Positions 6,026 through 61,354 of a DNA stretch of 63,330 bases are shown here, in pieces (position 1 is the stretch's first letter; every line of letters starts with the position of its first letter). The notes under the pieces were generated by a model, which worked only from the letters and a program-made list of their open reading frames with translations, had not been told where the DNA came from and did no database searches. A program made the position numbers and the translations under genes. Location: IMG/VR virus record IMGVR_UViG_3300037851_000912, positions 1 through 63,330 of that record. One strand, given 5' to 3'. The stretch is from a virus.

Positions 6026-6252
6026 CCGGGCTCCGCTCGTTCAGCCGACAGCAGCTGCTTGCGATGCCGTGGGACGAGCTCGAGTCGCTGGGGCTCTGCG
6101 AGTGCGGCACGCCGCTGGCGTCGCACCCGAAGCTGCCGAAGGTTCGACCGCTGACGAGCTGGAAGGCGCAGCGGTCGATCGAGGAGGGGCTGTCGCAGAA
6201 CGCGACGAAGCACCAGAGCGCCCGGAAGCGGGCGTGGAACCGGGTCGTGTAG
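6022..6252 (+). CDS. Hypothetical protein (76 aa)
   Basis: ATG 6022 with ATGA overlap on the terminase stop. High third-position G+C. Followed directly by hairpin copy 1. Confidence 0.6.
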   Translation: MTGLRSFSRQQLLAMPWDELESLGLCECGTPLASHPKLPKVRPLTSWKAQRSIEEGLSQNATKHQSARKRAWNRVV

Positions 6253-6271
6253 TCATTCCGCACGGAATGAC
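6252..6271 (+). terminator. CATTCCGCACGGAATG hairpin element, copy 1
   Basis: gtCATTCC-GCAC-GGAATGac begins at the last base of the stop codon of 6022..6252. It is the first element of regulatory cassette A. Confidence 0.7.
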
Positions 6272-6313
6272 GCCCTGAGCCATCTGTCACGCGCCCCTGA
6301 GCCACACTTCCCC

Positions 6314-6342
6314 TTGACGCCCATGTGGCGCGATGTCAACAT
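6314..6342 (+). promoter_or_regulatory. Sigma-70-type promoter, family copy A
   Basis: TTGACG (6314-19), 17-nt spacer ending in TGT, then CAACAT (6337-42), followed by the conserved GAAGGTATGAAA. Confidence 0.65.
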
Positions 6343-6348
6343 GAAGGT

Positions 6349-6534
6349 ATGAAATCCAACGGCAAAGAGCAGGACTGCGTCCACGCGCAAGCGGTCGTCG
6401 TCTGCGGCGAACGGCGCTGCCCTCGTTGCTACGAGCTCGAGCTCGAGCGGTCCTACCGCGAACGCTCGATGCCGCGTGGCCGGGTCGTCGTCTTCCGCAA
6501 CGACCACGGGCACCAGAGCTTCCGGGTCGAGTAG
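6349..6534 (+). CDS. Small Cys-rich protein, possibly leaderless
   Basis: ATG 6349 lies 7 nt after the -10 hexamer. MKSNGKEQDCVH..CGERRCPRC. In frame with the track start at 6325. Confidence 0.5.
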   Translation: MKSNGKEQDCVHAQAVVVCGERRCPRCYELELERSYRERSMPRGRVVVFRNDHGHQSFRVE

Positions 6535-7841: not shown

Positions 7842-8126
7842 ATGGGCGCAAGCCCCGATTACGAGTGCGTGGAGTACGACGGGACCGTGACCGTCGGCGT
7901 CATGTACCAGCGCATCGCCGACGAGCGAGCGTACGAGTCCGGGCATTCGAAGGAGCCGAGCGACGTGACCCGCGAGGACGCGCAGCGGGCAGCCGCGCAC
8001 GGGCTCGACCTGCTCCAGCTGGAGCGGGCGGCGCAGGTCTACGACGACAAGTGGGGACCGGCCGTCGCGTTCGTCGGCGGGCCGCTCACGAATGGGATGC
8101 GGATTGCTCTCGTTGACGGCGCCTGA
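7842..8126 (+). CDS. Hypothetical protein
   Basis: ATG directly after the motif. High GC3. Confidence 0.7.
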   Translation: MGASPDYECVEYDGTVTVGVMYQRIADERAYESGHSKEPSDVTREDAQRAAAHGLDLLQLERAAQVYDDKWGPAVAFVGGPLTNGMRIALVDGA

Positions 8127-8141
8127 GTGCCGTGTCAACAT
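8113..8141 (+). promoter_or_regulatory. Sigma-70-type promoter, family copy
   Basis: TTGACG (8113-18), 17-nt spacer ending in TGT, CAACAT (8136-41), then GAAGGTAGG. Overlaps the 3' end of 7842..8126. Confidence 0.6.
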
Positions 8142-8160
8142 GAAGGTAGGACCAAGCACA

Positions 8161-9570: not shown

Positions 9571-9586
9571 CATTCCGCACGGAATG
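9571..9586 (+). terminator. CATTCCGCACGGAATG hairpin element, copy 2
   Basis: Exact 16-mer, 14 nt after the stop of 9360..9557. Confidence 0.7.
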
Positions 9587-9636: not shown

Positions 9637-9673
9637 AGAAGGGCCGTCCGAGTCGAGATCGGACGGCCCTTCT
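9637..9673 (+). terminator. 14-bp stem-loop upstream of the portal gene
   Basis: AGAAGGGCCGTCCG, a 9-nt loop, then CGGACGGCCCTTCT. Followed by GGAGGAG and GTG 9692. Confidence 0.5.
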
Positions 9674-16261: not shown

Positions 16262-16299
16262 GCGAGCTGAGACGGTAGTAGTCCGAGAGGGCCGCGCTC

Positions 16300-16328
16300 G
16301 GGCGGCATTCCGCAAGGAATAGCCGCCC
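16300..16328 (+). terminator. Hairpin element copy 3 (GCAA loop variant, extended stem)
   Basis: GGGCGGCATTCC-GCAA-GGAATaGCCGCCC: a 12-bp stem with one bulge, after the capsid gene stop. Confidence 0.7.
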
Positions 16329-16357
16329 GACCGTCGCCGTCGAGAGGAGAACAGGTC

Positions 16358-16945
16358 ATGGGATACCCGCGGCACATCAAGCCGAACTACGGGCTCGACG
16401 TCGCGAACTGCTTCGTCGCGTCGCTGGGCGCCCCGGCGCTGGCGAGCGCGAACCGGTACGTGACCTCGACGAACATGAAGGTCGGGGCGTATACGGTCGC
16501 CAACGCGGCCTCGGCCGACGGTCTGGCGCGCAACCTCGTGGCGACCATCACGGCCGTCACGGGCAACGACACGCCGGGCGTGCTCGTCATCACGGGCACC
16601 GGCGCCGACGACCGGGCGCTGACCGAGACGCTGACGCTCGTCGCCGGCGGCACGGCCACGGGGCTGAAGTGCTTCAAGACCGTGACCTCGATCGTCGGGT
16701 CGGGGTGGGTCATCAACACCGGCAACGACACGATCGTCGTCGGGACCGGGAACAAGATCCAGCTGCCGAAGGCGGTGCATCAGAGCCCGGCGGCCGTGAC
16801 GGCCGGCGTGTTCATGGTCGTCCTCGGGACCTCGGTCGTGGCGGTCTCGGCTCAGATCGACGACGACATCAGCAAGAGCTGGGTCGACGCAAGCGCCGGC
16901 ACGTACGACGGCTCCAAGAAGCTGTACGCGTTCGTGCTGCGGTAG
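16358..16945 (+). CDS. Structural-module protein, paralog A of 27322..27900
   Basis: Shares TS(T/A)NMKVGAYTVAN and FKTVT.(I/V)VG.GWVIN.GNDT.VVGT with the gene that follows the tail tube. Confidence 0.7.
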   Translation: MGYPRHIKPNYGLDVANCFVASLGAPALASANRYVTSTNMKVGAYTVANAASADGLARNLVATITAVTGNDTPGVLVITGTGADDRALTETLTLVAGGTATGLKCFKTVTSIVGSGWVINTGNDTIVVGTGNKIQLPKAVHQSPAAVTAGVFMVVLGTSVVAVSAQIDDDISKSWVDASAGTYDGSKKLYAFVLR

Positions 16946-18030: not shown

Positions 18031-18045
18031 TAGCGGCGGCGGGGA

Positions 18046-50648: not shown

Positions 50649-50851
50649 CCGAGCACGCGTTCAGGATCTCAGCCTACGGCGGGCGGTGCGCGACGTGCGC
50701 CGCCCGGCCGGGCACTTCGCCGCTGTGCAGGGCGCCGGTTGCGCCATCGCCCGCGCCTCCCGGCGCCCTGCAGACCGGCCAAGGCGGCCCGGCAGCAAGA
50801 GGAGGCCCCGATGGGCGCAGAGAGAGTCCGGCACGCGAAGTCCGTTCGTGA
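50645..50851 (+). CDS. Possible small Pro/Ala-rich ORF
   Basis: GTG 50645 with GTGA overlap. It overlaps the next gene by 41 nt and has low-complexity composition. Confidence 0.3.
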   Translation: MTEHAFRISAYGGRCATCAARPGTSPLCRAPVAPSPAPPGALQTGQGGPAARGGPDGRRESPAREVRS

Positions 50852-51080
50852 GGCCGAGCAGCTGCGTGACGAGTTCGTCACGCTTGGGTACAAGGTCGAG
50901 TCGACCGGCGAAGCGACGACGGTCGTCAAGAAGTCGACGTGGGGCTCGGTCGCCGGGCACCTCGGCGTCGCGCTCCTGACCGTCTGGTGGACGTTCGGGC
51001 TCGGGAACCTCGCGTACGCGCTGATCGCGCACAAGAGCGACGAGGTCCTGATCCGCGTCGACACGGACGAGACGGCGTAG
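50811..51080 (+). CDS. Small membrane-associated protein
   Basis: ATG 50811 after GAGGAGG. TM-like segment GHLGVALLTVWWTFGLGNLAYALI. Confidence 0.65.
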   Translation: MGAERVRHAKSVREAEQLRDEFVTLGYKVESTGEATTVVKKSTWGSVAGHLGVALLTVWWTFGLGNLAYALIAHKSDEVLIRVDTDETA

Positions 51081-51083
51081 CTG

Positions 51084-51095
51084 GGAGGCAGAGGC
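51084..51095 (+). promoter_or_regulatory. Start-associated motif GGAGGCAGAGGC
   Basis: Abuts ATG 51096. Confidence 0.75.
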
Positions 51096-51308
51096 ATGAC
51101 ACGCGGCGTCTCGGTCGAGATGACCGAGGAGAAGGAGACGAAGAACACCGTCCGGTTCGCCGAGCTGTTCGACGGCGAGGCCGACACCGCGGTGATCGGG
51201 ACGCTGTACGTCCCGAAGCACACGCTGAACGAGCTCGCCAAGGGCGCGGCGCTGCCGAAGGGCCAGCCGCTGCACCTGCGCGTGACGATCGAGGTGGTGT
51301 ACCCGTGA
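51096..51308 (+). CDS. Hypothetical protein
   Basis: The motif abuts the ATG. Confidence 0.65.
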   Translation: MTRGVSVEMTEEKETKNTVRFAELFDGEADTAVIGTLYVPKHTLNELAKGAALPKGQPLHLRVTIEVVYP

Positions 51309-51652
51309 CCCTGAAGCCGGGCGACATCGTGTCGCTGAACGAGGTCGGCCAGTCGCTTGCGGCTGGCGCGGCCCTGACGTCCGAGGACCGCATCGTGACC
51401 GAGGACACCGCGTGGGAGCGGATGACCGCCGGCAAGATGCTGCTGTGGTTGCAGGAGTCGCTGGAAGCCGGCGAGATCACCGGCGAGACGCTGCTCTGCG
51501 CCGACAGCGACCCGGAGGGCAACGGGATGCACCCGCTCCGCCGGGCCGTGTACTTCGGCAAGATCGACGAGGCGCCGAACGCCATGCACCCGGAGTGGGT
51601 GGACGAGGCCAAGGTGCCGTCCGAGGCCGTCTGCTTCGGAGTGGGGTACTGA
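51305..51652 (+). CDS. Hypothetical protein
   Basis: GTG 51305 with GTGA overlap. Confidence 0.55.
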   Translation: MTLKPGDIVSLNEVGQSLAAGAALTSEDRIVTEDTAWERMTAGKMLLWLQESLEAGEITGETLLCADSDPEGNGMHPLRRAVYFGKIDEAPNAMHPEWVDEAKVPSEAVCFGVGY

Positions 51653-51653
51653 G

Positions 51654-51866
51654 ATGAAAGGACCGCAGACCGTGGCTGAGTGGCTGGACGAGTACGTCGA
51701 CAGCCATTCGGTGTACGACACGGGCAAGCTCGCGCAGCTGGAGCCGTTCGACGTCAAGAGCGCCGTCGGCGCCCGTGCGGCGAAATTGACGTACGGCGAA
51801 CGGTCGACGCTGCTGGCGCTGTCGCCGATCGGGACGCCTTCCGCGCCTATTTCGAGGAGGTCGTGA
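51654..51866 (+). CDS. Hypothetical protein
   Basis: ATG 51654. High GC3, although the 3' third is ambiguous against the overlapping frame. Confidence 0.45.
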   Translation: MKGPQTVAEWLDEYVDSHSVYDTGKLAQLEPFDVKSAVGARAAKLTYGERSTLLALSPIGTPSAPISRRS

Positions 51867-52249
51867 CCGACGTGAACCTGACGCGCATCAAGGGCGAGGA
51901 CTGGGTGCCGGTCGGGGCGACCCGCCGACCCGTTCGCTCGACGCCCGACCGCCCGGCCGGGGTCATCATCGGGTACGTGGAGGCCGGTCAGGTTGTCCGC
52001 TCCATCGGCGAGGCTGACACCGACGACGGCAACGTCTGGCGCCTGACCGAGTACGGGGGCGACCCCGGCTGGCTGCTCCGCTCCGACTTCGTGCCGTTGG
52101 TCCCCGGCGGCGACCCGGCCGTCGACGGCCCGCTCCACGACTACATCGCCCGCAAGACGCTCGACCCGTCCGGCGCCTACGCCGACGGCTGGAACGACGC
52201 GCTCGCGGCCGCGCAGGACGCGGTCGACGACATCCCCCGCGAGAAGTAG
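51863..52249 (+). CDS. Hypothetical protein with an SH3-like N-terminal segment
   Basis: GTG 51863 with GTGA overlap after GAGGAGG. Contains DDGNVWRLTEYGGDPGWLLRSDFVPL. Confidence 0.55.
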   Translation: MTDVNLTRIKGEDWVPVGATRRPVRSTPDRPAGVIIGYVEAGQVVRSIGEADTDDGNVWRLTEYGGDPGWLLRSDFVPLVPGGDPAVDGPLHDYIARKTLDPSGAYADGWNDALAAAQDAVDDIPREK

Positions 52250-52260
52250 GGAGGTTCGCC

Positions 52261-52659
52261 ATGCTCGACCTCTGGAACGGGCTCGTGGAACGCGTGAACG
52301 GCGAGCCGGTCATGGTCCTCGCGGTGGTCCAAGCGGTCCTCGCCCTCGCCACGTCCTTCGGCCTCGGGCTGTCGGGCGAGCAGGTGGGCGCGATCCTCGC
52401 CGTCAGCGCCGCCATCCTCGGGCTCATCGCCCGCCAGAAGGTCACGCCGGAGGAAGCCGGGCAGAAGGCCGGGAACCCGAAGGGCCTCGAGCCGCTGGCT
52501 CCCGGCGTCGACCGGGACGTGCTGGTGTTCGCCGGCTACGACCTCGCGGCGGCGCTGGCCAGGCTGATCGCCGAGCAGGAGCCGGGGCTGGCGTTCATGG
52601 GCCGTGGGTCCGCGTTCCGCGCCAACGTCGCCGCGATCCGCAACGCGCAGGCGTCGTGA
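52261..52659 (+). CDS. Membrane protein (2 TM)
   Basis: ATG 52261 after GGGAGG. Contains VMVLAVVQAVLALATSFGLGL and VGAILAVSAAILGLI. Confidence 0.6.
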   Translation: MLDLWNGLVERVNGEPVMVLAVVQAVLALATSFGLGLSGEQVGAILAVSAAILGLIARQKVTPEEAGQKAGNPKGLEPLAPGVDRDVLVFAGYDLAAALARLIAEQEPGLAFMGRGSAFRANVAAIRNAQAS

Positions 52660-52660
52660 G

Positions 52661-52676
52661 TATTCCGTGCGGAATG
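52661..52676 (+). terminator. Hairpin element copy 9 (loop inverted: TATTCCGTGCGGAATG)
   Basis: Reverse-complement orientation of the element, 2 nt after the stop. Followed by promoter copy D. Confidence 0.65.
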
Positions 52677-52690
52677 GAGGTGTGTTCCTG

Positions 52691-52720
52691 TTGACGCCCT
52701 GAGAGCCCGACGAGCAGAAT
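52691..52720 (+). promoter_or_regulatory. Sigma-70-type promoter, family copy D (divergent)
   Basis: TTGACGCC, 18-nt spacer, CAGAAT, then CAAGGTAGG. Lies upstream of parB. Confidence 0.5.
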
Positions 52721-52766
52721 CAAGGTAGGCCCGGACCGACCCGGGTGCCTGCAAGCGGAGGGTCAG

Positions 52767-54221
52767 ATGACCGCGGAGAACGTGCCGGCCAAAGCGCCGG
52801 AGGTCGTCAGCGCGTTGCCGCTGACGAGCATCGAGCACGGGCGGAACCCGCGCACGATGCATGAGCTCGACAGCCAGAAGGAGCTGACCGATTCGGTGAA
52901 GCAGCACGGGGTGTTGCAGCCGATCCGGGTCCGGGCGCTCGGCGAGGGCCGCTACGCGATCGTGGCCGGCCACCGGCGCTACGAGGCGGCGAAGGCCGCG
53001 AAGCTGACCGAGATCCCGGTCGTCGTCGCGCCGGAGGTCGCGGACGAGTCCTCGACGTACGTCGAGTCGCTGGTGGAGAACCTGCAGCGCGAGGACCTGA
53101 ACCCGATCGACGAGGCGAAGGCGTTCCAGCAGCTGCTCGACGAGACGGGCTGGTCGCAGGACGAGCTCGGCAAGAAGGTCGGCCGCAAGCAGTCGACGAT
53201 CAGCAACGCGCTGCGGCTTCTGGGGCTTGAACCCGAGGTCGTCCAGGCGATCGAGACCGGGACGCTTACGGCCGCCCACGGCAAGGCGATCGCGACGCTG
53301 CCGAGCGATCGCCAGAAGGGCCTCGCGGCGAAGGCGGTCGAGCAGAAGATGAGCAGCAAGGCGGTCGAGGAGGCTGTCGCCTACGAGAAGGCGGTTGCTC
53401 AGCGACAGGCCGACAAGGTGAAGGAGCGCAAGGCCGCGATCGAGGCGATGCTGAAGCTGCTGGGGCAGGCGACGCCCGAGCAGAAGGAGAAGATCACGTT
53501 CTGGTTCCGCACGGAGGACATGGAGTCGGCTGCGAAGAAGGACGGCTTCAAGACCGGGCGCACGGAGTGGTCTCGCCCGAGCCCGCCGTACAAGTGCGCC
53601 TGCCTCGGGACGAACGCGTACTTCGACGAGTGGCAGCGTTCCGCGTCGATGGCGTGCATCGACAAGGAGCACGCGGCGGCCGCCGATGAGGAGGCCGCCG
53701 CCCTTCGCCTTCGCGGTCAGCTGGCGGCGCAGAAGGCGACCGACAAGGCCCGGACGGCGGTGGCGAAGCATCTGGTGAACGCCGTCGGGAAGCTGTCCGA
53801 CGACGGGCTGCGGGTTGTCCTGTACCTCGTCGTGACGACGAACCGAGGCTCGTACGCTTCGGGGGCGGCGACGATCGACGAGTCGGCGTTCGTGAAGCGA
53901 CACGGCGGGACGCCGCGTCATCGGTACAGCTCCGACAACGGCGACGTGTGGGACGTCTGCCAGGGGATGTCGATCTCCGACGTCCTCGACGAACTGGCGA
54001 AGTTCGTCGGCCAGCTGGTGCAGCCGAACGTGTTCCTGCCCGGGAAGTCGACGTACGGCTTCGAGCGGGACTGGCGGCTGCGGGCGTACCTGCACGAGCA
54101 GAAGGTGCTCGTCAAGGACGCGGTGTTCGGCCCCGACGGCGTCCCGGAGCGGGTGCTCGAGCCGTACAAGCCCGCGAAGCCGGAGAAGCCGAAGGCCGAT
54201 CCGAAGCAGCCGGTGAACTAG
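52767..54221 (+). CDS. parB: Canonical ParB/Spo0J-type protein with a long C-terminal extension (484 aa)
   Basis: LTSIEHGRNPR, GVLQPIRVR, YAIVAGHRRYEAAKAAKL, ENLQREDLNPIDEA, and the HTH segment WSQDELGKKVGRKQSTISNALRLL. Confidence 0.85.
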   Translation: MTAENVPAKAPEVVSALPLTSIEHGRNPRTMHELDSQKELTDSVKQHGVLQPIRVRALGEGRYAIVAGHRRYEAAKAAKLTEIPVVVAPEVADESSTYVESLVENLQREDLNPIDEAKAFQQLLDETGWSQDELGKKVGRKQSTISNALRLLGLEPEVVQAIETGTLTAAHGKAIATLPSDRQKGLAAKAVEQKMSSKAVEEAVAYEKAVAQRQADKVKERKAAIEAMLKLLGQATPEQKEKITFWFRTEDMESAAKKDGFKTGRTEWSRPSPPYKCACLGTNAYFDEWQRSASMACIDKEHAAAADEEAAALRLRGQLAAQKATDKARTAVAKHLVNAVGKLSDDGLRVVLYLVVTTNRGSYASGAATIDESAFVKRHGGTPRHRYSSDNGDVWDVCQGMSISDVLDELAKFVGQLVQPNVFLPGKSTYGFERDWRLRAYLHEQKVLVKDAVFGPDGVPERVLEPYKPAKPEKPKADPKQPVN

Positions 54222-54235
54222 CCCACCGCTGGGGC

Positions 54236-54266
54236 GGGGCGGAGACGCCCCAGGCGTCTCCGCCCC
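54236..54266 (+). terminator. Strong stem-loop after parB
   Basis: GGGGCGGAGACGCC-cca-GGCGTCTCCGCCCC: a 14-bp perfect stem. No U-tract. Confidence 0.6.
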
Positions 54267-54271
54267 GAAAA

Positions 54272-54283
54272 GGAGGCAGAGGC
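54272..54283 (+). promoter_or_regulatory. Start-associated motif GGAGGCAGAGGC
   Basis: Abuts GTG 54284. Confidence 0.75.
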
Positions 54284-54532
54284 GTGACGTACGTGAACGT
54301 GCCGGAGGCGAAGCCCGCCTGGCCGGTGAAGTGTGAGTCCTGCGGGGAGCCGGCCGACCCGAAAACGGGCAGGATCCGTCACCGGGCGACCGAGCCGATG
54401 CCGTCGATGGAGCAGATCGAGGAGTGGGTCTACGACTCGGTGTGCGATGCGACGGACGGATGCGAGGTCGAACCGGACGGGACCTGCCCGCATGGGCACC
54501 GAAGCTGGCTGCTCCGGCTGGGCCTGATCTGA
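54284..54532 (+). CDS. Hypothetical Cys-rich protein
   Basis: CESCG...CDATDGC...CPHGH. Confidence 0.6.
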   Translation: MTYVNVPEAKPAWPVKCESCGEPADPKTGRIRHRATEPMPSMEQIEEWVYDSVCDATDGCEVEPDGTCPHGHRSWLLRLGLI

Positions 54533-55470
54533 TGCAGATGCCGATGAAGCCCATGCTGGCGAAGCTCACGCCGGCAGAGGGAGTCCTGAACCGTCGGGAC
54601 ATCGTGTGGGAGCCGAAGTGGGACGGGTACCGGCTGATTGCGGAAGCGCGGGGCGCGCTGCCCTGCCGTTTGTGGACGCGAGCCGGGAACCTCGTGACGT
54701 CGCAGTACCCTGTCATCGCCGAGGCGATCGACGAGTCCGGCGTCGAGTGCGTTCTCGACGGAGAGGTCGTCGTTATGGTGGACGGGCGTCCGTCGTTCAA
54801 CGCGTTGCAGCTGAGCGGGCGGATGAGCCGACGAGAGCTGGAGGACCGGATGCGCTACGTCGTGTTCGATGTTCTCGAGCTCGACGGACAGGACCTGCGG
54901 TCGCGGCCGCTGCTCGACCGCAAGCAGGAGTTGAGTTTGCTGCACGGACAGATTGCGAGCCCCGTCGTGCAGCTGACGCCGATATCCGGCGACGGCCCGC
55001 GGATGTGGGAGGCGATGGAGCTGGCCGACCTCGAGGGCCTGATCGGGAAGCCGGCGAACAGTCCGTACCGGAACGGCGAACGCGGGACGTGGCTGAAGCT
55101 GAAGCGGAAGCGCCTCGGCGAGTTCGCCGTCGTTGGGTGGACGTGGGGCAAGGAAGGCGTGACCGGCTCGCGCATCGGCGAGATCGGGGCGCTCGTGCTG
55201 GCGACCCGCCTGCCGGACGGGCGACTGCTCTATGCCGGAAAGGTCGGGACCGGGTTCACGGGCCAGGTGTTGGCCGAGACGAAGGCCGCGCTTGAGGCCG
55301 TGAAGCGCGACGGCTCGCCGTTCGTCGGCGCGGAGATGGCGAAGGCGAGGAAGCAGATCGGCGCCGAGCCGGTCGAGTGGGTTGAGCCCGAGTACACGGC
55401 GACCGTCGAGTACGCGGAGATGGGGCCGGGCGGCGTGCCACGGTTCCCGAGCTTCAAGGGGATGCGATGA
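54532..55470 (+). CDS. ATP-dependent DNA ligase (LigD ligase-domain-like)
   Basis: ATG 54532 (TGATG overlap). VWEPKWDGYR is motif I (KxDG). Also VLDGEVV, YVVFDVL, LEGLIGK and TWLKLKRK. Confidence 0.85.
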   Translation: MQMPMKPMLAKLTPAEGVLNRRDIVWEPKWDGYRLIAEARGALPCRLWTRAGNLVTSQYPVIAEAIDESGVECVLDGEVVVMVDGRPSFNALQLSGRMSRRELEDRMRYVVFDVLELDGQDLRSRPLLDRKQELSLLHGQIASPVVQLTPISGDGPRMWEAMELADLEGLIGKPANSPYRNGERGTWLKLKRKRLGEFAVVGWTWGKEGVTGSRIGEIGALVLATRLPDGRLLYAGKVGTGFTGQVLAETKAALEAVKRDGSPFVGAEMAKARKQIGAEPVEWVEPEYTATVEYAEMGPGGVPRFPSFKGMR

Positions 55471-55697
55471 CCGTCGCGGTAGGCACCTGCGAAGGGTGCC
55501 TCGATGAGCTGACGCTGTTCGACCGGGCCGCCGGCTACCGGGTGTGCTTCGCCTGTACGAAGGCCCGCCACGCGGCGGTCGTCCGGCGGCGCTGCCCATG
55601 CGGGCCGAAGCGGCGGCCGGTCGAGCGGGACAACCATCTCGGGCGCCGCTGGATTGCGTGCGAGCGGTGCCTCGGGTTCGTGAGGCAGCTGACATGA
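55467..55697 (+). CDS. Hypothetical Zn-ribbon protein
   Basis: ATGA overlap. CEGC...CFAC...CPCG...CERC. Confidence 0.55.
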   Translation: MTVAVGTCEGCLDELTLFDRAAGYRVCFACTKARHAAVVRRRCPCGPKRRPVERDNHLGRRWIACERCLGFVRQLT

Positions 55698-55912
55698 AGA
55701 CGTTCGAGGAAGCGCACCACGCGACTGCGTCCGTCGTCATCGGCGGTGTGCCGCAGCAGTTCCGCTGCATGACGTGTCGGGAGCCGTGGCCGTGCCTGGC
55801 CGCCGAGGCGGTCAAGGAGGACGGGGGTCGCACCCGCGCCGTGTTCTGGCTGGGCTGGTGCGTCGGCGTCCTCACGGCGATGGCGGTCGTAGCCGTCGCG
55901 AGGTCGCTGTGA
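55694..55912 (+). CDS. Small protein with a C-terminal TM helix
   Basis: ATGA overlap. Contains AVFWLGWCVGVLTAMAVVAV. Confidence 0.55.
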   Translation: MKTFEEAHHATASVVIGGVPQQFRCMTCREPWPCLAAEAVKEDGGRTRAVFWLGWCVGVLTAMAVVAVARSL

Positions 55913-55951
55913 GATGACCGAGCACACACGCTATCGAGTGCCGTTGCGGCG

Positions 55952-56170
55952 ATGTGCTCCCGACCGTCGAGGCGATGCACGAACACTCCCGAGGCCGACC
56001 ACGTTGACGACGACACCAAGGCCGAGGCTCGCGCAGCCGCGCTGGCCGAGGCAGCGGAAAAGGTGAGGGCGCTGCTCGACTCGCCCGCCGCATACCCCGC
56101 CCCGATGGGACCGACCATCAGGGCGGAGAACGACGTGGTGCGTGCCGTCCTCGCCATCTTGGAGGAGTGA
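55952..56170 (+). CDS. Hypothetical protein, tandem paralog 1
   Basis: Shares AALAEAAEKVR and VLAILEE with the next gene. Confidence 0.5.
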   Translation: MCSRPSRRCTNTPEADHVDDDTKAEARAAALAEAAEKVRALLDSPAAYPAPMGPTIRAENDVVRAVLAILEE

Positions 56171-56544
56171 TGACCGAAGCAGGCGAGCGGCTGCTGGCCT
56201 TTCTGGAAACCCAGCGCAGGAATAGCGCGGGCGGCGGCGAGTCATGGCGCAACGGGCTGACCTATGCGACCGGCTGCGTGCGAGACAGCCTGCCCGCCAT
56301 CATCGCCGAGGCCCGCCACGCTGGCTACGTCGAGGGCTTCGATGCCGCGCTGGCCGAGGCAGCGGAGAGGGTGCGGGGGCTGCCCATGACCTTCGGCCTG
56401 CACACTTGCTGGGACGACCATGAGGGCGGCGTTGACCTCGACGGCAACCCGACCCTTCATGCAGACGGGACGGCGTGCGGCGACCGCCTCATCAACGAGT
56501 CCGTCAGCCGCGCCGCCGTCCTCGCCATCTTGGAGCAGCGATGA
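56170..56544 (+). CDS. Hypothetical protein, tandem paralog 2
   Basis: ATG 56170 (TGATG overlap; the track start GTG 56167 is also possible). Contains AALAEAAERVR and VLAILEQR. Confidence 0.55.
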   Translation: MTEAGERLLAFLETQRRNSAGGGESWRNGLTYATGCVRDSLPAIIAEARHAGYVEGFDAALAEAAERVRGLPMTFGLHTCWDDHEGGVDLDGNPTLHADGTACGDRLINESVSRAAVLAILEQR

Positions 56545-56582
56545 CCACGGCCTGGGAGTCGGTACCGTCGGGCCGGGTGGCC

Positions 56583-56612
56583 TTGTAGTTGCGGTCAACG
56601 CGGGTGTAGTCT
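56583..56612 (+). promoter_or_regulatory. Candidate promoter giving a leaderless GTG transcript
   Basis: TTGTAG, 18-nt spacer, TAGTCT. GTG 56619 begins 7 nt after the -10. Confidence 0.3.
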
Positions 56613-56618
56613 CCGGAC

Positions 56619-56903
56619 GTGGACGACTACCGAGCCATCGAGGGGGTCCTGTACTCGCTCCGGCGCTCGCCGGACGCCAAGCCGTCCTCGCCGGGGGTCG
56701 GTTGGCGTCGCCACAGCTTCGGGCCACGCGACCCGGTCGATCGGCTGGCGCCGAGGCTCGACATCGCGCTGGCGACCCAGCGCCTCGAGGCCGCCGACCG
56801 AAGCGTGCTGGTCGAGCACTACGTCCGAGGGAATGCCCAGCCTGGCCGGCTGCGTCGACAGGCGATACGACGGTTGCGCCTGGTGCTCGCCGAGGGGGGT
56901 TGA
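56619..56903 (+). CDS. Small regulator candidate (sigma-70 region-4-like)
   Basis: High GC3. Contains LDIALATQRLEAADRSVLVEHYVRG...RRQAIRRLRLVL. Confidence 0.45.
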   Translation: MDDYRAIEGVLYSLRRSPDAKPSSPGVGWRRHSFGPRDPVDRLAPRLDIALATQRLEAADRSVLVEHYVRGNAQPGRLRRQAIRRLRLVLAEGG

Positions 56904-57000
56904 CGACCACCGGCGAGCGGGTACCATGCGGTTGTTGGATCCGCGCCGAAGTCCTCTGCCTCCAACGGATGTCGACGACGTGGGCTCCAGCTTGCAGGCC

Positions 57001-57028
57001 GAAACCCGGACCGAGAGGTCCGGGTTTC
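57001..57028 (+). terminator. Intrinsic-terminator-like hairpin
   Basis: GAAACCCGGACC-GAGA-GGTCCGGGTTTC, a 12-bp stem, then GTCTGTCC. Confidence 0.6.
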
Positions 57029-57050
57029 GTCTGTCCTACGGGAGTGAGAC

Positions 57051-57464
57051 ATGACTGACGGGGCTCCGAAGGAGCTCGTTCGAGACCTTGGGCCGGACGC
57101 CGCGACGAGGGCCGTGCTCGACGACTTGGAGAAGGTCGCGCTGTGCGGCGGGCGGTTCGCGATTGACTGGACGGCCGGTCCGTGGAAGGGCCAGCGCCTG
57201 ACGGTGTACTGCCAGCAGCCCGGGTGCATCACGACCGGCAGCTGCACCGGGCCGAAGTTCGTGCCCGGGTACCCGCAGTTCGACGCGAGAACGGAGGCGC
57301 CCAGGATCCCAGCGCCAGCGGAGATGGTCGCCGGCGCCCGCGAAGCGGCGAAGAAGGCGACTGGCAAGGACGACCCGCGCACCGACAAGGAGATCGCCCG
57401 GCACATCGGGGCGGTGCTGCAGCGGGCCATCGAGGCCGTGCGATCGGGCGGCTGGTCGCCTTGA
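57051..57464 (+). CDS. Hypothetical protein
   Basis: ATG 57051 after GGAGTGAG. High GC3. Confidence 0.65.
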   Translation: MTDGAPKELVRDLGPDAATRAVLDDLEKVALCGGRFAIDWTAGPWKGQRLTVYCQQPGCITTGSCTGPKFVPGYPQFDARTEAPRIPAPAEMVAGAREAAKKATGKDDPRTDKEIARHIGAVLQRAIEAVRSGGWSP

Positions 57465-57489
57465 TGCCCGCGTGACCGAGTGTCATCAT
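57461..57489 (+). promoter_or_regulatory. Sigma-70-type promoter, family copy
   Basis: TTGATG, 17-nt spacer ending in TGT, CATCAT, then GAAGGAATGAA. Overlaps the stop of 57051..57464. Confidence 0.55.
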
Positions 57490-57526
57490 GAAGGAATGAA
57501 CCCCATCTGCAAGCTGGAGGGACGAG

Positions 57527-58459
57527 GTGAGACGACCGTCTCAGCACGCGGCCGCCCGGAGCGCGCTGCACAAGCACATCCGCCGAGGCGAGGTCGAGCA
57601 GGCCGCCGGCGTAGCGCGCTACCTGCATGAGCTGAACGACGACGACGGGCTGGCGCGACGCCTGACGGCCATCGTGACCGAGGACGTCGAGCCGTACTGG
57701 CTCCCGGTCGTGGCGAAGGAGGCGGTGCGGGCCATGACGCCCGACCCGGCCGAGGAGCCGGCCGACCTCGTCCGCGTCGCGGCGACGCTGGCCGCGGCCC
57801 CGAAGCGGAAGGAGAGCTACTGGCTCGCCGAGACGGTGTGGGAGAACCGGACCCCGCCGAGAGAGCCGGCCGGCTTCGCCTCGCTCGAGGCGGCGGTCGA
57901 GCATGGCGACCACGCGCAGGTGCTGGCGCAGCTGCTCTGGTTCCACGAGCAGCGGAAGATCCGCGAGGCCGAGGACCTGCTGCGACGGCGGCACGTCCGG
58001 TCGGCGCTGGCCGAGGACATGCTGCGGTGGGCCGTCTGGCGCCTGCAGCTCGGCGGCTTCGGCGGCGGCGAGGCGTTGGCTGCGGCTGCGGTCGCGCTGG
58101 TCGACGCGCCCGAACAGGCCCGGCCGTTCGAGCAGTTCGACATCGACGTCGAGCCGTTGGGCCCGCCGTACGAGTGGTACTGCTACGACGCCCACACGCA
58201 GGTGGGCAAGATCGCGGTCGGGTCGTTCGCCAAGCGCCGGGGCTGGAACCGCGACCAGCTGGGGATGCTGTCGTTCTACTACGAGAGCGCCGTGCTCGGG
58301 CCGTCGGTCGTGCCCGGTCGATGGGACGGAGAGGCCGCCGAGCTGCTGGCGCGGACGTACGGCTGGCTGACGCCGGAGCACGGGGCCGACCTGTGGGCGG
58401 CGATCCGGGTCGACTTCATGGGGCTGGTGCGTTGGCTGCTCGCACGCGGCGTCGGGTGA
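57527..58459 (+). CDS. MgsA/RarA C-terminal-domain-like protein lacking an AAA+ module
   Basis: GTG 57527 after GGAGGGACGAG. SALHKHIRRGEVEQAAGVARYL...LARRLTAIVTEDVEP...LAAAPKRKESYW...YCYDAHTQ resembles the MgsA_C pattern. Confidence 0.45.
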   Translation: MRRPSQHAAARSALHKHIRRGEVEQAAGVARYLHELNDDDGLARRLTAIVTEDVEPYWLPVVAKEAVRAMTPDPAEEPADLVRVAATLAAAPKRKESYWLAETVWENRTPPREPAGFASLEAAVEHGDHAQVLAQLLWFHEQRKIREAEDLLRRRHVRSALAEDMLRWAVWRLQLGGFGGGEALAAAAVALVDAPEQARPFEQFDIDVEPLGPPYEWYCYDAHTQVGKIAVGSFAKRRGWNRDQLGMLSFYYESAVLGPSVVPGRWDGEAAELLARTYGWLTPEHGADLWAAIRVDFMGLVRWLLARGVG

Positions 58460-58477
58460 TGCGATACTCGGAAGGGA

Positions 58478-59212
58478 ATGCTGGTCGCGTCGATCCCGAG
58501 CCGATACAGGTGTGAGCCGCTGATTGCGGAGGTCCGCGGTCTGCTCTACGAGGATGCGGTCGACCGAGTCCTCGTCTACGACAACGGGTACGGCCCAGAC
58601 GACGCCGCCAGAATCAGAGCGGCGCTGTCCGGGCCTCGCTGTACCGTCGTCGACGCCGCCGGGTGGCCGCTCCACCGCATGTGGAACGCCGGCTGGGAAT
58701 GGGCCCAGGAGCAGGGCGGCGAGGTCTCGCTGGCGATCCTGAACGACGACGTGTCGTTGCCGCTCGGCGCGCTGACGGAGCTCGAGAAGCGGCTCCGGTC
58801 GCGGCCCGACGTCGGCGTCGTGTACCCGGAGGGCGGGCGCTTCCGGAAGTTCGAGGACGGGATCGGCCCGGGGCCGCTGGTCAACACGGGTGGCCGGCTG
58901 CAGGAGCAGCGGGGCATGACCGGGCACGCGTTCATGTTTCGCGCCGAGGTCCGCGACATCGAGAAGTTCGACGAGCGGTTCGGCTGGTGGTACGGCGACG
59001 ACGACTTCGTGCTGAAATGGGCGCTCGCCGGCTGGAAGGTCTGCCGAGCCGTCGGTGTCCCGGTGAAGCACGTCGGGATGGCCTCGTCGAAGGGCCGCCC
59101 GGAGCTCGTGCCGATCCGAGCGGCCGACGGTGTGCTGTTCCGCCAGCTGTACCCGGAGTGGGTCGACTCGAAGGCTCGCTACGAGCGATGGCCGGATGAA
59201 GTGATCGAGTAG
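58478..59212 (+). CDS. GT-A fold (family 2-like) glycosyltransferase
   Basis: RVLVYDNG, LAILNDDV (DxD) and WWYGDDDF. Confidence 0.65.
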   Translation: MLVASIPSRYRCEPLIAEVRGLLYEDAVDRVLVYDNGYGPDDAARIRAALSGPRCTVVDAAGWPLHRMWNAGWEWAQEQGGEVSLAILNDDVSLPLGALTELEKRLRSRPDVGVVYPEGGRFRKFEDGIGPGPLVNTGGRLQEQRGMTGHAFMFRAEVRDIEKFDERFGWWYGDDDFVLKWALAGWKVCRAVGVPVKHVGMASSKGRPELVPIRAADGVLFRQLYPEWVDSKARYERWPDEVIE

Positions 59213-59229
59213 CCGTCAGGGGCAAGCCC

Positions 59230-60600
59230 ATGCGTGTTCTGGCCGTCCCGATGCTGTACACGGACGCGTCGGTCTCGGGTGTCAGCGTGATCGCGAACCT
59301 CGCGGCGTCCGTGACGGCCGCGGCGGAGCTCGAGCTACCGGAGTACTGGGAGATCGTCGTCGCGTCGCGCCCGTCGGGATATGGATCCCAGCAGGTCGAC
59401 TGGTTGAAGCGACCCCGTGTCAGCGTCCAGCCGCTCGGCGACGTGACCGACGTGAACGAGGACCCGCCCGTCAGCTGGGACATGCTGCGCCCGCTCCTGC
59501 CCAGGAAGGGCCGCGTCGTGTTCGACGTCGTGCTGAACAACCGCTACCTGCACAGCGCGACCATCGCGAACACGCTGCAGGTGCCGCCCGGGAAGTGGTA
59601 CCAGACGATCGAGATCCCGGTCGTGACGTGGCTGACCGAGACCGGCCTCGACAAGCGCGAGTGGCAGCTGAACAGCAAGCCCGGGGTGGCGCTCCTGACC
59701 GCGTGCGCCATGACCGGGCCGTTCGTCGTCATGAACCAGGCCGACGCCGACTGGCTGACCGGCGTCCTTGACCGGGAGGCCCTAGTGTACGTTGTGCCGC
59801 CCTGCGCTGACCTGTCGCGCCTGACGCCCGAGAAGCGCCGGCGCGACCGGAGGGTCGTGTTCCACGGCGGCAGCATCGAGGGCCGCCGCCGGCTGAAGGC
59901 GTTGCACGACGCGCTGCCGGCCGAGGCCGATCTGCTCCTGACGAGCCAGCAGACGTTCAGTCCCGGCGCGTTCCCGAGGGCGCGGACGATCAGCAACGTC
60001 GACCACGAGGAGTACCTGCGGCTGCTCCCGCAGGGCGACATCGTGTACGTCGGCTCCGAGTACGAGGGCACCGGGCTCGGCTGGATGGAAGCCATCGCGA
60101 GCGGAATGCTGCCGGTGCTCCTCGACGCCGGCTGGATGGCGGCGCGGCTGCCGGCCGGCTACCCGCTGCAGGCGCGCACGCCCGGCGAGCTGCGAGCGGT
60201 GCTGGCGCGAGCCGTGGCCGAGTACGACGAGCTGTGGGACGAGTGGATGCCGAAAGTGCTCGACGGGCTGGCCGGATTCCAGCCGGCCGCGGTCGCCCAG
60301 CGGATGCACGACACGCTGGCCGAGATCGCCGAGCCGGCAAGGAAGCGGAACTTGGCGGCAGCGCAGAAGTGGTCGCCCGGGTTCGACCTGCTGGCCCGGG
60401 CGGTCGAAGCGGAGGGATGGTCGGTCGTCACGGATGCCAGACCGTTGTGGAAGGCGATGAGCCGGCAGAGCCGCACCGGCCTCGAGCCGTCGTGGTACAG
60501 CCCGGCCGCGCTCCGGTGGATGCTGATGGCGCTCGGCTACGAGGACCGACACGAGCAGAGCGGGCTCGACCTGAGGAGGGAAGATGCCGCCCGAGCATGA
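59230..60600 (+). CDS. GT-B fold (GT4-like) glycosyltransferase
   Basis: YVGSEYEGTGLGWMEAIASGMLPVL is an E-x7-E-type motif. 456 aa. Confidence 0.65.
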   Translation: MRVLAVPMLYTDASVSGVSVIANLAASVTAAAELELPEYWEIVVASRPSGYGSQQVDWLKRPRVSVQPLGDVTDVNEDPPVSWDMLRPLLPRKGRVVFDVVLNNRYLHSATIANTLQVPPGKWYQTIEIPVVTWLTETGLDKREWQLNSKPGVALLTACAMTGPFVVMNQADADWLTGVLDREALVYVVPPCADLSRLTPEKRRRDRRVVFHGGSIEGRRRLKALHDALPAEADLLLTSQQTFSPGAFPRARTISNVDHEEYLRLLPQGDIVYVGSEYEGTGLGWMEAIASGMLPVLLDAGWMAARLPAGYPLQARTPGELRAVLARAVAEYDELWDEWMPKVLDGLAGFQPAAVAQRMHDTLAEIAEPARKRNLAAAQKWSPGFDLLARAVEAEGWSVVTDARPLWKAMSRQSRTGLEPSWYSPAALRWMLMALGYEDRHEQSGLDLRREDAARA

Positions 60601-61354
60601 GCTCCGGATGGTGCACGTCGATGCGATCGTGCCGGACCCGGAGAACCCGCAGACGCAGGACAGCACGACGTTCAGCGACCTCGTCGACTCGATTGCCCAG
60701 GACGGCATGACCGAGGCCGTGACGGTGGTCGACATCGGCGGGGGCAAGTGGATGCTCGTCGCCGGCGAGCACCGCTGGCGAGCCGCGAAGATGGCCGGGC
60801 TCGAGGCCGTGCCGGCCATCGTCATCGCGAAGGGCACGTGGGACGACGACGAGCGAGCGATCCGCATGGTCCGGAGCAACGTCCTGCGGGGCCGGCTCGA
60901 CCCGGCGAAGTTCACGGCGCTGTACGGGCAGCTGGCGAAGCGGTACAGCCCCGACGACCTGCGGCGGATGCTCGGGTTCACGTCCAAGAAGCACGAGATG
61001 GAGCGCCTGGTCGGCAGCATCACCGCGGCGATGCCCGAGCCGATGAAGAAAGAGATGCGCCAGAGGGGCCAGCAGGCGGAGAGCGTGGACGACCTCGGCA
61101 GCGTCGTCCAGAGCCTGTTCGCGAGGCACGGCGCGACCGTGGCCGCCCACTTCGTGCTGTTCGCCTACGGGGGCCGCACGCACCTGATGGTCGAGTGCGA
61201 GCCGGAGACGTTCGCGCAGATCGAGGCATGGGCCGAGCGGGTCGAGCGCACCGGCGGCACGGTCGATGCAGAGCTGGCGAGGATGGTCAGCGAAGTGACC
61301 GCGAACGAGCGCGGCGAGGCGGTGCATTCCGCACGGAATAGGAGCGACCGATGA
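60584..61354 (+). CDS. ParB/Srx-like N-terminal domain protein, paralog 2
   Basis: VHVDAIVPDPENP...WMLVAGEHRWRAAKMAGL. Collinear with 2799..3521 along its whole length. Confidence 0.7.
   Translation: MPPEHELRMVHVDAIVPDPENPQTQDSTTFSDLVDSIAQDGMTEAVTVVDIGGGKWMLVAGEHRWRAAKMAGLEAVPAIVIAKGTWDDDERAIRMVRSNVLRGRLDPAKFTALYGQLAKRYSPDDLRRMLGFTSKKHEMERLVGSITAAMPEPMKKEMRQRGQQAESVDDLGSVVQSLFARHGATVAAHFVLFAYGGRTHLMVECEPETFAQIEAWAERVERTGGTVDAELARMVSEVTANERGEAVHSARNRSDR
61325..61340 (+). repeat. Hairpin element copy 10, inside the 3' end of the ParB-like gene
   Basis: CATTCCGCACGGAATA, 11 nt before ATG 61351. Encodes ..HSARN.. Confidence 0.6.

Follow-up and report, generated by a model that had tools for sequence, protein, structure and literature searches.

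A two-fold symmetric 16-bp site dispersed over a tailed-phage genome as the candidate cognate site of an orphan ParB

What reads the short palindrome that recurs along this viral genome? The window, by which we mean the whole stretch of 63,330 nt that was analysed, carries ten copies of a 16-mer for which an initial annotation had offered three roles: terminators or attenuators, hairpins for RNA processing or stability, and operators for a dimeric phage regulator. Our analysis finds the last of these best supported, since the element is a symmetric double-stranded DNA site that travels with the ParB protein encoded at 52767-54221. Judging from sequence comparison, we propose with a probability of about 0.6 that the 16-mer is the cognate parS/NBS/OB-type site of the phage's own orphan ParB.

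All ten copies reported earlier are present at their positions. With up to two mismatches on both strands, 14 matches were found against 0.02 expected from shuffles, in agreement with the earlier statement that such a 16-mer is not expected by chance. The ATTCC pentamer occurs 13 times on the + strand and only three times outside the sites. Placement was judged on our own gene calls, which put all genes on the + strand; the promoters named below are predicted.

6254-6269, no strand: site 1, exact (16/16), 2 nt past the 6022-6252 stop codon; the -35 of the 6314 early promoter follows 44 nt downstream
6252-6271, no strand: perfect 8-bp inverted repeat at site 1
9571-9586, no strand: site 2, exact (16/16), bare, 14 nt past the stop at 9557
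16306-16321, no strand: site 3, 14/16 (centre GCAA, last base A), 45 nt past the capsid stop, at the tip of a long inverted repeat rich in G+C (about 16297-16330)
18051-18066, no strand: site 4, exact (16/16), 21 nt past the stop at 18030, embedded in an extended stem (about 18034-18080)
27924-27939, no strand: site 5, 15/16 (ends GGAATA, last base A), bare, abutted by a separate hairpin GGCCCGGgcgaCCGGGCC (27907-27924) and by the ribosome-binding site of 27953
32408-32423, no strand: site 6, degenerate, 14/16 (ends GGAACA), deep inside tail gene 31517-34774
39640-39655, no strand: site 7, exact (16/16), moderately extended stem, 11 nt past the stop at 39629; the -35 of the 39762 promoter follows 107 nt downstream
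48954-48969, no strand: site 8, 15/16 (ends GGAATA), extended stem, overlapping the last codons and TAG of 48653-48970; the -35 of the 49013 early promoter follows 44 nt downstream
52661-52676, no strand: site 9, 15/16, centre in the opposite orientation (TG), bare, 2 nt past the 52659 stop; the parB promoter -35, TTGACG, follows 14-15 nt downstream
61325-61340, no strand: site 10, 15/16 (ends GGAATA), bare, within the final 30 nt of 60584-61354, which encodes a protein with ParB_N only, and abutting the ribosome-binding site of 61351

Nine of the ten copies lie at gene ends. Seven are fully intergenic, each 2-45 nt past a stop codon, and because intergenic DNA makes up only ~7.5% of the genome, this enrichment between genes is strong. 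The annotation had counted eight copies after a stop, but the one at 48954 overlaps its stop codon. The copies at 32408 and 61325 do lie within coding sequence, as described; the former, given as 15/16, matches at 14 positions. The ten sites are also distributed more evenly than chance allows. In this one complete genome their spacing has a CV of 0.42 and a maximum gap of 9873 nt. Compared with uniform placement, P is 0.005 (CV) and 0.003 (maximum gap); compared with randomly chosen intergenic gaps it falls below 5e-5. Site 6 is the sole copy in the 11.7 kb from site 5 to site 7, a stretch with almost no intergenic DNA.

The unit shared by the copies is a two-fold symmetric 16-bp DNA site, YATTCCRY-RYGGAATR. 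Over 70 half-sites, drawn from 35 copies in 15 loci, the consensus is Y A T T C C R Y, with a pyrimidine at position 0 in 68/70 and A at position 1 in 69/70; the positions of the supposed loop are R in 66/70 and Y in 68/70. Symmetry continues through that loop and one base outside the supposed stem. Position 0/15 combinations (C..G 15, C..A 8, T..A 5, T..G 5) approximate independent assortment. Thus, these bases do not pair, and the half-sites vary independently, without covariation.

Such symmetry weighs on the alternative that the elements are mainly RNA hairpins, serving as factor-independent or factor-assisted terminators, attenuators or 3'-end stabilisers, with a conserved apical stem as the target of an RNA-binding protein or nuclease from phage or host. 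We consider this unlikely, although the preference for gene ends speaks for it. Conservation reaches the loop and the non-pairing position 0/15 in two-fold symmetric fashion. In 11 aligned copies the five core pairs never vary, whereas compensatory changes occur at all six outer pairs, so covariation holds for the flanks and not for the core. The loop itself takes 12 variants among relatives, the single copy of one relative (L070) lies inside the parB coding sequence, and no Rfam family matches the element. The centre follows transcription in 8/9 informative copies of the window (CA:TG 8:1), as an RNA element might, but both orientations occur outside the window, and with all 35 copies counted (22:6) no bias is robust. 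GCAC occupies the centre of 8/10 window copies, oriented with transcription, a pattern that would suit an RNA loop or recent copying from site to site.

For the stem extensions, we compared fold energies with those of shuffled 3' flanks (200 shuffles at site 4). Among the five extended stems named previously, those at 16306 (p 0.01), 18051 (p<0.005, 0/200 shuffles reaching its energy) and 48954 (p 0.02) are significant, that at 39640 is marginal (p 0.07), and that at 6254 falls short (p 0.14) despite its perfect 8-bp stem. The remaining five window copies have no extension (site 2, p 0.41). Overall, 11/33 copies have significantly extended stems, each with a different sequence. The copy 3' of the capsid gene is extended in most relatives, and in L044 two U·G pairs are possible only on the + transcribed strand, all of which favors a role in RNA. 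By comparison, two thirds of the copies are bare 5-6-bp stems, and, as already noted, no U-tract follows any of the ten (longest T run 2). Strong hairpins that lack the motif occur at other gene ends, in addition to the one abutting site 5:

54235-54267, + strand: perfect 15-bp stem directly 3' of the parB stop, given for context only
9637-9673: 15-bp stem, ~50 nt past site 2
49831-49855 and 57000-57029: similar motif-free hairpins

Thus, gene-end hairpins in this genome do not need the motif, and since two thirds of its copies are bare, a hairpin or terminator is not the common function. The earlier terminator proposal holds in part: the significant, covarying G+C-rich extensions concentrate in the late region, for example 3' of the capsid gene, and this extended third of the copies probably acts as terminators or 3' stabilisers at the RNA level. 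Extensions on about one third of copies are clearly selected, and a pure double-stranded DNA site would not need them.

The site lies within ~130 nt of the parB start in 8/8 independent loci of one rare ParB family, usually 2-25 nt upstream of the parB -35. It adjoins parB in the window, in L067, L068, L069, L070 and L206 and, with one mismatch, in L204; L206 and L204 were fetched after the prediction that the site lies next to parB, as its test. The parB-proximal copy (site 9 in the window) is conserved in every ParB relative examined; L070 (16 kb) and L204 (9 kb) carry no other. No copies were found in 12 loci of other ParB types (about 230 kb); the HTH was read in eight of these, three of which clearly have A, K or N as the specificity residue. 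The core is invariant although the relatives' capsids are 56-82% and their ParBs 33-45% identical, which implies long-term selection on the sequence. Copy positions are likewise syntenic, 3' of the capsid gene and 5' of parB. Against the link to ParB, the motif was not found in 21 kb of L064 and L066, which are relatives by capsid, and parB opens a transcription unit, a position that would suit any sort of boundary element.

52767-54221, + strand: orphan HTH-ParB, 484 aa, proposed binder of the sites
52691-52720, + strand: predicted sigma70-type parB promoter, TTGACG-N18-CAGAAT, a consensus match only

This protein was missing from the DNA-binding candidates listed initially (40412, 41639 and 56619), of which only 40412 matched an HTH family, and weakly. 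It contains ParB_N (6e-21) and HTH_ParB (1e-29) domains followed by a unique Cys/His-containing C-terminal domain of ~250 aa, and by sequence it is nearest to chromosomal ParB, Noc and KorB (best solved relatives Spo0J/ParB 2e-40, Noc 2e-33, KorB 1e-9). In a predicted structure, its DNA-binding domain superposes on the Noc DBD-NBS complex at an rmsd of 1.9-2.0 Å and on ParB DBD-parS at 1.3 Å. The GERRxR box reads GHRR here and is variable across the family, no canonical ParB C-terminal dimerisation domain was found in the protein, and no ParA was found in the phage. Clamp and CTP behavior are therefore uncertain.

The recognition residues and the site can be compared base by base. In Caulobacter ParB, guanine 1 of parS is bonded by Arg173, a residue that is invariant among ParB orthologues; Noc has Q at this position and reads adenine 1 of NBS; and position 201 reads base 6 (PMC7383237). 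In the phage family the 173-equivalent residue is Q in 14/16 members, and position 201 is the small residue Ala, with base 6 the variable one of the motif (G/A/T). The motif matches parS and NBS in register and length. Family Gln and motif adenine 1 thus form a residue-to-base match within the same 16-bp register.

The best reading, then, is that the sites are parS/OB-like loading and operator sites, at which ParB would bind, regulate its own gene and spread. A ParB dimer would recognise the two half-sites through its helix-turn-helix and then, by analogy with ParB, Noc and KorB, might close as a nucleotide-dependent clamp and slide onto flanking DNA. The predicted -35 elements lie 15, 44, 44 and 107 nt downstream of their sites. 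Through site 9, immediately 5' of its promoter, parB would be autoregulated, and KorB-like repression could act from the copies that precede three other early promoters by 44-107 nt. Ten sites with gaps of at most 9.9 kb could load ParB over the whole 63.2-kb genome. The sites occupy the few short intergenic gaps, and about one third of them form the tip of longer inverted repeats rich in G+C.

Could the adjacency to parB be incidental, with the sites serving another dimeric phage protein, such as the 70-aa HTH protein at 40412-40624, or a host regulator? Symmetric half-sites require a dimeric DNA binder without naming which; 40412-40624, downstream of site 7, weakly matches HTH families (Sigma70_r4, HTH_23; phrog 'HTH DNA binding protein'); and many genes of the phage have no assignable function. 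We nevertheless find this improbable, given the parB-proximal copy in all eight loci, the likeness to the Noc site and the Q that reads adenine 1. In addition, the first 120 stretches listed in a genome-wide 16-mer scan comprised single matches and unrelated elements that occur in several copies each. Another alternative is a DNA repeat, selfish or structural, with no regulator acting in trans: a mobile miniature palindrome, a signal for recombination or replication, or a target of restriction or modification. This would suit a short, near-identical multi-copy palindrome in intergenic DNA, a GCAC centre more uniform within than between genomes, as copying between sites would give, and a phage with a large putative sugar and modification module, but it is very improbable in view of the invariant core, the syntenic rather than scattered positions, the regular spacing, and our finding no flanking target duplications or longer shared element around the copies.

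The ParB reading can be set beside known systems. The closest known parallel, by analogy, is KorB with its OB operators on the IncP-1 plasmid RK2, a replicon of ~60 kb with many OB copies. As proposed for the phage, this system pairs a ParB-fold HTH protein with a multi-copy 16-bp palindrome over the replicon, and KorB is a detectable sequence and fold relative of the phage ParB. KorB is a CTP-dependent sliding clamp and global repressor, and its OB operators precede promoters by 4-10 bp or by 45 bp to more than 1 kb (PMC11790492); the phage sites show similar distances, 2-25 nt from parB -35s and 44-107 nt at other early promoters. However, the site sequences differ, the phage ParB is nearer chromosomal ParB and Noc and has another C-terminal domain, no KorA-like partner or ParA (IncC) was identified in the phage, the replicon is a tailed phage, and six of its ten sites belong to late, structural or modification operons and have no predicted promoter close by. 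Bacillus Noc shares with the phage ParB the Gln at position 173 (PMC7383237), many sites dispersed over the genome, and no ParA partner, and NBS (xATTTCCC) agrees with the phage half-site (xATTCCRY) at 5/7 positions. Noc differs in its permissive Lys at 179 and 184 and Arg at 201 (Ala, Gly and Ala in the phage), in its N-terminal amphipathic membrane helix, which is not evident in the phage protein, and in its chromosomal role in nucleoid occlusion of cell division.

Chromosomal ParB-parS, P1 ParB and N15 SopB belong to the same protein family, and ParB-parS resembles the phage system in having a palindromic site beside the parB gene. The N15 SopB sites are dispersed along that phage's genome. 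They are four separate palindromes, IR1-IR4 (PMC7205306). In contrast, our phage lacks ParA or SopA, has Gln for Arg173 (PMC7383237), and has no canonical parS in the window even at three mismatches. No integrase or plasmid-replication evidence was found in the phage, so partition is not obviously needed.

Cluster A stoperators and the phiC31 conserved inverted repeats, the latter palindromic, also place many copies of a short operator in small intergenic gaps across a phage genome, all read by one phage repressor. Those binders, however, are immunity repressors of temperate phages rather than ParB-fold proteins. Stoperators are asymmetric and oriented with transcription (PMC4351075), so the comparison with them drawn earlier is weak for a symmetric site. 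The Cluster O mycobacteriophage Corndog carries more than 30 dispersed copies of an invariant 17-bp palindrome with a variable centre, mostly intergenic and with no orientation bias, for which binding by a dimeric protein was predicted; Cluster O phages encode Ku, glycosyltransferases and a ParB-like protein, have 8-9 SigA-like promoters and no integrase, and the authors drew no connection between the repeats and Corndog gp90 (PMC4351075). The dispersed, mostly intergenic arrangement and variable centre recall our phage, whereas the repeat TGTTCGGNNNCCGAACA, its 7-3-7 geometry and its copy number do not. Corndog and this phage have no nucleotide or capsid similarity, and Pfam detected no HTH_ParB in gp90. 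Even so, an alignment of gp90 with the window ParB, covering ParB_N and the HTH, shows 35% identity.

The best-supported reading of the repeated 16-mer, to which we give a probability of about 0.6 from comparison of sequences, is that it would be a parS/NBS/OB-type site for the phage's own orphan ParB. The protein in question is encoded as follows:

52767–54221, + strand, ParB of 484 aa with ParB_N and HTH_ParB domains

The 16-mer CATTCCGCACGGAATG and its near-copies occupy ten positions in the window, at 6254, 9571, 16306, 18051, 27924, 32408, 39640, 48954, 52661 and 61325 (sites 1–10). The initial annotation had placed them there and judged them far beyond chance; indeed, allowing up to two mismatches, both strands yield 14 matches against 0.02 expected. 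Four copies are exact and three end in A. The 52661 copy has the opposite centre, the 16306 copy has the centre GCAA, and the 32408 copy, previously scored as 15/16, matches at 14/16. The tendency to follow stop codons, put at eight copies with two more in coding sequence, holds for seven, which are wholly intergenic and lie 2–45 nt past a stop; two others overlap a gene's last codons and one lies deep in a tail gene. Intergenic DNA amounts to only ~7.5% of the genome, G+C content is 69%, and every called gene is on the + strand. The window is a complete metagenome contig of 63,330 bp whose ends, 1–127 and 63204–63330, are an identical 127-bp direct repeat; the genome must thus be either circular and closed or terminally redundant, with a unit of 63,203 bp, and the gene running from 62423 to 443 crosses the junction.

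The 70 half-sites from 35 pooled copies have the consensus Y-A-T-T-C-C-R-Y, in which position 0 is a pyrimidine in 68 of 70. The two-fold symmetry reaches into the "loop", where position 6 is R and position 7 is Y. Positions 0 and 15 do not covary (C..G 15, C..A 8, T..A 5, T..G 5), and this independent assortment argues for a dimer reading each half-site on duplex DNA, not for base pairing. The site is 16 bp long and two-fold symmetric with independently conserved half-sites (n = 70), as would be expected of a parS/NBS/OB-type site. The centre is oriented CA:TG in a ratio of 8:1 in the window and 22:6 across all 35 copies, with mixed orientations in relatives, so there is no robust strand polarity. 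The stoperators of Cluster A mycobacteriophages are multi-copy operators, and a likeness to them had been suggested; an asymmetric, transcription-oriented site would then be expected, which this symmetric one is not. Multi-copy operators were already known in other phage genomes, for example IR1-4 of N15 (PMC7205306).

Capsid relatives at 56–82% identity were found in metagenome contigs, and nine of these carry ATTCC-N4-GGAAT just past the capsid stop; two are duplicates (L044 and L045), leaving eight distinct. Two further capsid relatives, L064 and L066, show no motif in 21 kb. Across genomes the ATTCC/GGAAT arms are constant and the central four bases vary (GCAC, GTGC, GCGC, ACAC, ACAT, GCGT, ACGT, AGAT and others), and the flanks of this capsid-downstream copy form long G+C-rich stems of quite different sequence. 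The compensatory changes that had been suggested for the stem were sought across relatives in an 11-sequence alignment; they appear as double changes in all six outer pairs and in none of the five core pairs, which are invariant. Such a pattern suggests that base identity is under selection in the core, and pairing in the flanks. Close relatives were found neither among GenBank phages nor in IMG/VR. At DNA level the GenBank phages gave no relative, near-identical or distant, and their best matches for capsid and portal are Firmicutes phages at 34–40% identity. Scans of IMG/VR with a 15-mer gave 36 single hits, which is chance level only, and with the capsid gave no relatives. In bacterial and archaeal genomes, the matches listed for the 16-mer (at least 120 stretches) were single hits and unrelated multi-copy elements from one MAG and Oceanobacillus, and neither a host-genome family nor a host emerged from them. 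In the MAG Deltaproteobacteria OFTM47, four contigs (L095, L110, L112 and L152) contain the exact 16-mer, within a longer multi-copy element and adjoining a DnaA-box-like TTATCCACA. These copies seem to belong to a repeat or insertion sequence that has nothing to do with the phage sites.

It is useful to ask how much of this could be explained by RNA. Stems extend significantly beyond those obtained with shuffled 3′ flanks in 11 of 33 copies (p ≤ 0.01 in seven), and these are concentrated downstream of capsid genes and in the late regions; copies in the early region are bare. As to the terminator or hairpin function first proposed, the stable G+C-rich gene-end hairpin of an intrinsic (rho-independent) terminator is seen in 11/33 copies overall and in 3–4/10 in the window, the extended ones there including 16306, 18051 and 48954; the others are 5- to 6-bp stems. 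The absence of U-tracts had been noted and is borne out for every copy, the longest T run in the following 30 nt being 2. Strong motif-free hairpins stand at other gene ends (9637–9673, 49831–49855, 54235–54267 and 57000–57029), the first of them 50 nt past site 2, and site 5 is abutted by an ordinary motif-free hairpin. Rfam gave no match anywhere in the window at the gathering threshold. Hairpin formation is not the common denominator of the copies, and a primarily RNA role for them is unlikely. At about a third of the sites, gene-end hairpins carrying the site at their apex probably do act on RNA; where intergenic DNA is as scarce as it is in this genome, a palindrome at a hairpin tip is free of cost. 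Three narrower candidates were dropped: GGAAT as an ECF-type −35 (no conserved −10 at a fixed distance, and two copies 10–13 nt before a start codon), a boxB/N-type antitermination hairpin (variable loop, dispersed copies) and a CRISPR-repeat mimic (on the same two grounds). A separate, unexplained perfect inverted repeat with a 14-bp stem, ACGTTGTCGAAGAC-CGG-GTCTTCGACAACGT, lies at 20884–20914 inside the gene 19288–21288.

The protein proposed to bind the sites has the features of its family. Its N-terminal ParB_N/Srx domain has the CTPase fold (PF02195, 5.9e-21), the fold matches ParB, Noc and KorB structures, and its nearest solved proteins are ParB/Spo0J (2e-40) and Noc (2e-33), with KorB more distant. 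The HTH_ParB domain (PF17762, 1.1e-29) retains conserved contact residues (G170, N178 and others), in alignments with solved ParBs its GRKQSTISN falls on GK(S/A)R(S/P)xxAN, and a model of the DNA-binding domain, superposed on the Noc-NBS and ParB-parS complexes, fits at 1.3–2.0 Å. The nucleotide box ENLQRE is present. The GERRxRA box reads GHRRYEA here and G(H/R/A/F/S)RR in the family, with two invariant Arg; because GERR reads GHRR, the clamp step is uncertain. The canonical C-terminal dimerisation domain PF23552 gave no match in this protein. Its C-terminal ~250 aa have conserved Cys and His, match no PDB fold, and belong to a rare family of 17 clusters in 1.84e9 representatives. No ParA-type partner was detected in the non-structural genes scanned, which lie outside 8758–39629, and canonical parS is absent from the window. 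Orphan ParB-fold proteins are frequent in phages and largely uncharacterised (PMC12704722).

Specificity can be compared residue by base. In Caulobacter ParB it is Arg173 that bonds to guanine 1 of parS (TGTTTCAC-GTGAAACA); the equivalent residue of Noc is Gln, and Noc reads adenine 1 of NBS (TATTTCCC-GGGAAATA); and base 6 is read by residue 201 (Jalal et al., PMC7383237). In the phage ParB family, 14 of 16 members have Gln at the 173-aligned position (GRkQSTISN), and at motif position 1, in the same 16-bp register, 69 of 70 half-sites have adenine. Residue 201 is Ala in the family, and motif base 6 varies between genomes (G/A/T). Five of seven half-site bases are shared with NBS. The correspondence of Gln at 173 to adenine 1 indirectly supports specific binding of the motif by ParB.

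The site and the gene also occur together. The predicted parB promoter has TTGACG as its −35, and 14–15 nt upstream of this hexamer lies the 52661 copy, in opposite orientation. Three contigs whose ParB homologues are 36–45% identical each carry a copy ahead of parB, at distances of 2, 15 and 25 nt from the −35. The contig of a 34% homologue has its sole copy in 16 kb, with centre TCAG, 13 nt inside the parB frame, where the encoded residues are not conserved across the family. Two more family loci were fetched after the prediction was made: in L206, TATTCCACAAGGAATA precedes the −35 by 8 nt, and L204 has a one-mismatch copy, its only one in 9 kb, ~95 nt upstream of parB. In all, 8/8 family loci, including the two predicted in advance, have a copy near parB, as would be expected of a parS/NBS/OB-type site; loci with other ParB types have a copy in 0/12 (~230 kb). 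The HTH was read in eight of those 12, and three clearly have Ala, Lys or Asn at the key specificity position. Gordonia phage Eyes, the nearest cultured ParB-like match, has no repeated palindrome and is uninformative. Two other viral contigs, with more distant ParB homologues, carry palindromes of their own, GCGAACGNCGTTCGC four times over 20 kb (L077; 1330, 6354, 9374 and 19295) and TTTGCAASTTGCAAA three times in a cluster 1.1 kb upstream of parB (L072; 8828, 8874 and 8923), which may be analogous ParB-site pairs. Another DNA-binding protein could own the sites, its dimer reading the same symmetric halves; the proximity to parB and the Gln-adenine match make this doubtful. A selfish or structural repeat is highly improbable.

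On the circle, the ten sites are spaced more evenly than under uniform placement, with a CV of 0.42 (P 0.005) and a widest gap of 9,873 nt (P 0.003). Against draws from intergenic gaps, themselves concentrated in the early region, P is <5e-5. Without the degenerate copy at 32408, which is inside a gene, the long tail genes would be left with a gap of 11.7 kb. A site lies 15–107 nt upstream of the −35 in four of the eight predicted sigma70-like promoters, namely the parB promoter and those at 6314, 39762 and 49013. The early promoter regions share sequence well beyond the hexamers:

6291–6391, early promoter region
8108–8151, early promoter region
39762–39800, early promoter region
48990–49090, early promoter region
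57456–57499, early promoter region

Each has an upstream CTGAGCC box and then TTCCCCTTGACGCC-N-TGTCAACATGAAGGTATGAAAACCACCG. The family also has weaker members, at 40361, 52691 and 56900. KorB on plasmid RK2, a CTP-dependent sliding clamp, uses OB sites that are proximal (4–10 bp) or distal (45 bp to over 1 kb) (PMC11790492), and the site-promoter distances here resemble both classes. ParB at the 52661 site would autoregulate the parB promoter, the other early promoters would probably be under KorB-like control, and the ten sites would load ParB along the whole genome; we infer binding, nucleotide dependence, spreading, repression and termination alike. As judged from sequence, the element is a putative ParB-site system with Noc-like specificity and KorB-like layout on a tailed phage.

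If so, one family of orphan phage ParBs gains a DNA site that is both defined and testable, along with a specificity residue, and a KorB-like multi-site layout appears on a virus. The protein, the 16-mer and a Q-to-R swap would provide a concrete system for ParB/Noc specificity diversification outside chromosomes. For annotation, short repeated gene-end "hairpins" should not be taken as terminators by default. The pairing also offers a hypothesis for the dispersed palindromes with no assigned function that further high-G+C phages carry, those of Cluster O among them.

More broadly, a sugar-nucleotide/glycosyltransferase module runs from 57527–63203 into 1–6025, directly upstream of the large terminase (4238–6025). 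Its members include:

59230–60600, glycosyltransferase
60584–61354, ParB_N-only protein (phrog_26387)
61351–61764, cupin
61761–62486, epimerase-like protein
62423 to 443, across the junction, DegT-type aminotransferase
440–1402, GDP-mannose-dehydratase-like protein
1399–2802, glycosyltransferase
2799–3521, ParB_N-only protein (phrog_26387), paralogous to 60584–61354

ParB_N-only proteins have recently been shown to activate phage thymine dioxygenases on dsDNA, and this module resembles the gene neighbourhoods of those hypermodification pathways (PMC13229309). No dioxygenase was identified in it. The gene 3525–4241 was considered as a thymine dioxygenase that might partner the neighbouring ParB_N protein and then dropped: it matches nothing in Pfam or PHROG, and its poor, all-helical single-sequence model (pLDDT 44) is more like a small terminase subunit. 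Given the ParB_N-only paralogs and those activators, site-loaded ParB could be a genome-wide platform. In this decidedly speculative extension, an orphan ParB-fold clamp of an apparently non-temperate tailed phage would load at about ten even sites and coat the genome, acting not only as a repressor but as a self-marking platform that recruits or licenses DNA-modification or packaging machinery, and the same logic might cover the Cluster O repeats.

Cluster O mycobacteriophages have more than 30 dispersed 17-bp palindromes (TGTTCGGNNNCCGAACA) with no assigned function, and they encode Ku, glycosyltransferases and a ParB-like protein and lack an integrase (PMC4351075). In gene set and dispersed palindromes they are strikingly parallel to this phage, whose scanned genes include no recognised integrase. 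Encoded at 40642–41454, 43736–47193 and 54532–55470 are Ku, an SbcCD/Mre11-Rad50-like pair and an ATP-dependent DNA ligase, which make up an NHEJ-like set comparable to that of the mycobacteriophages Corndog and Omega. Corndog gp90 (502 aa) is 35% identical to the window ParB over 122 aa, spanning ParB_N and an HTH-like segment, and the Cluster O repeats might be gp90 sites. The 10 kb of Corndog at 50000–60000 (L207) hold seven copies of the Cluster O palindrome. Finally, the window contains a repeat of another kind: 16673–16746 and 27619–27692 (74 nt, 86% identical) lie in the paralogous structural genes 16358–16945 and 27322–27900, with a site close by in each case, upstream of one and downstream of the other.
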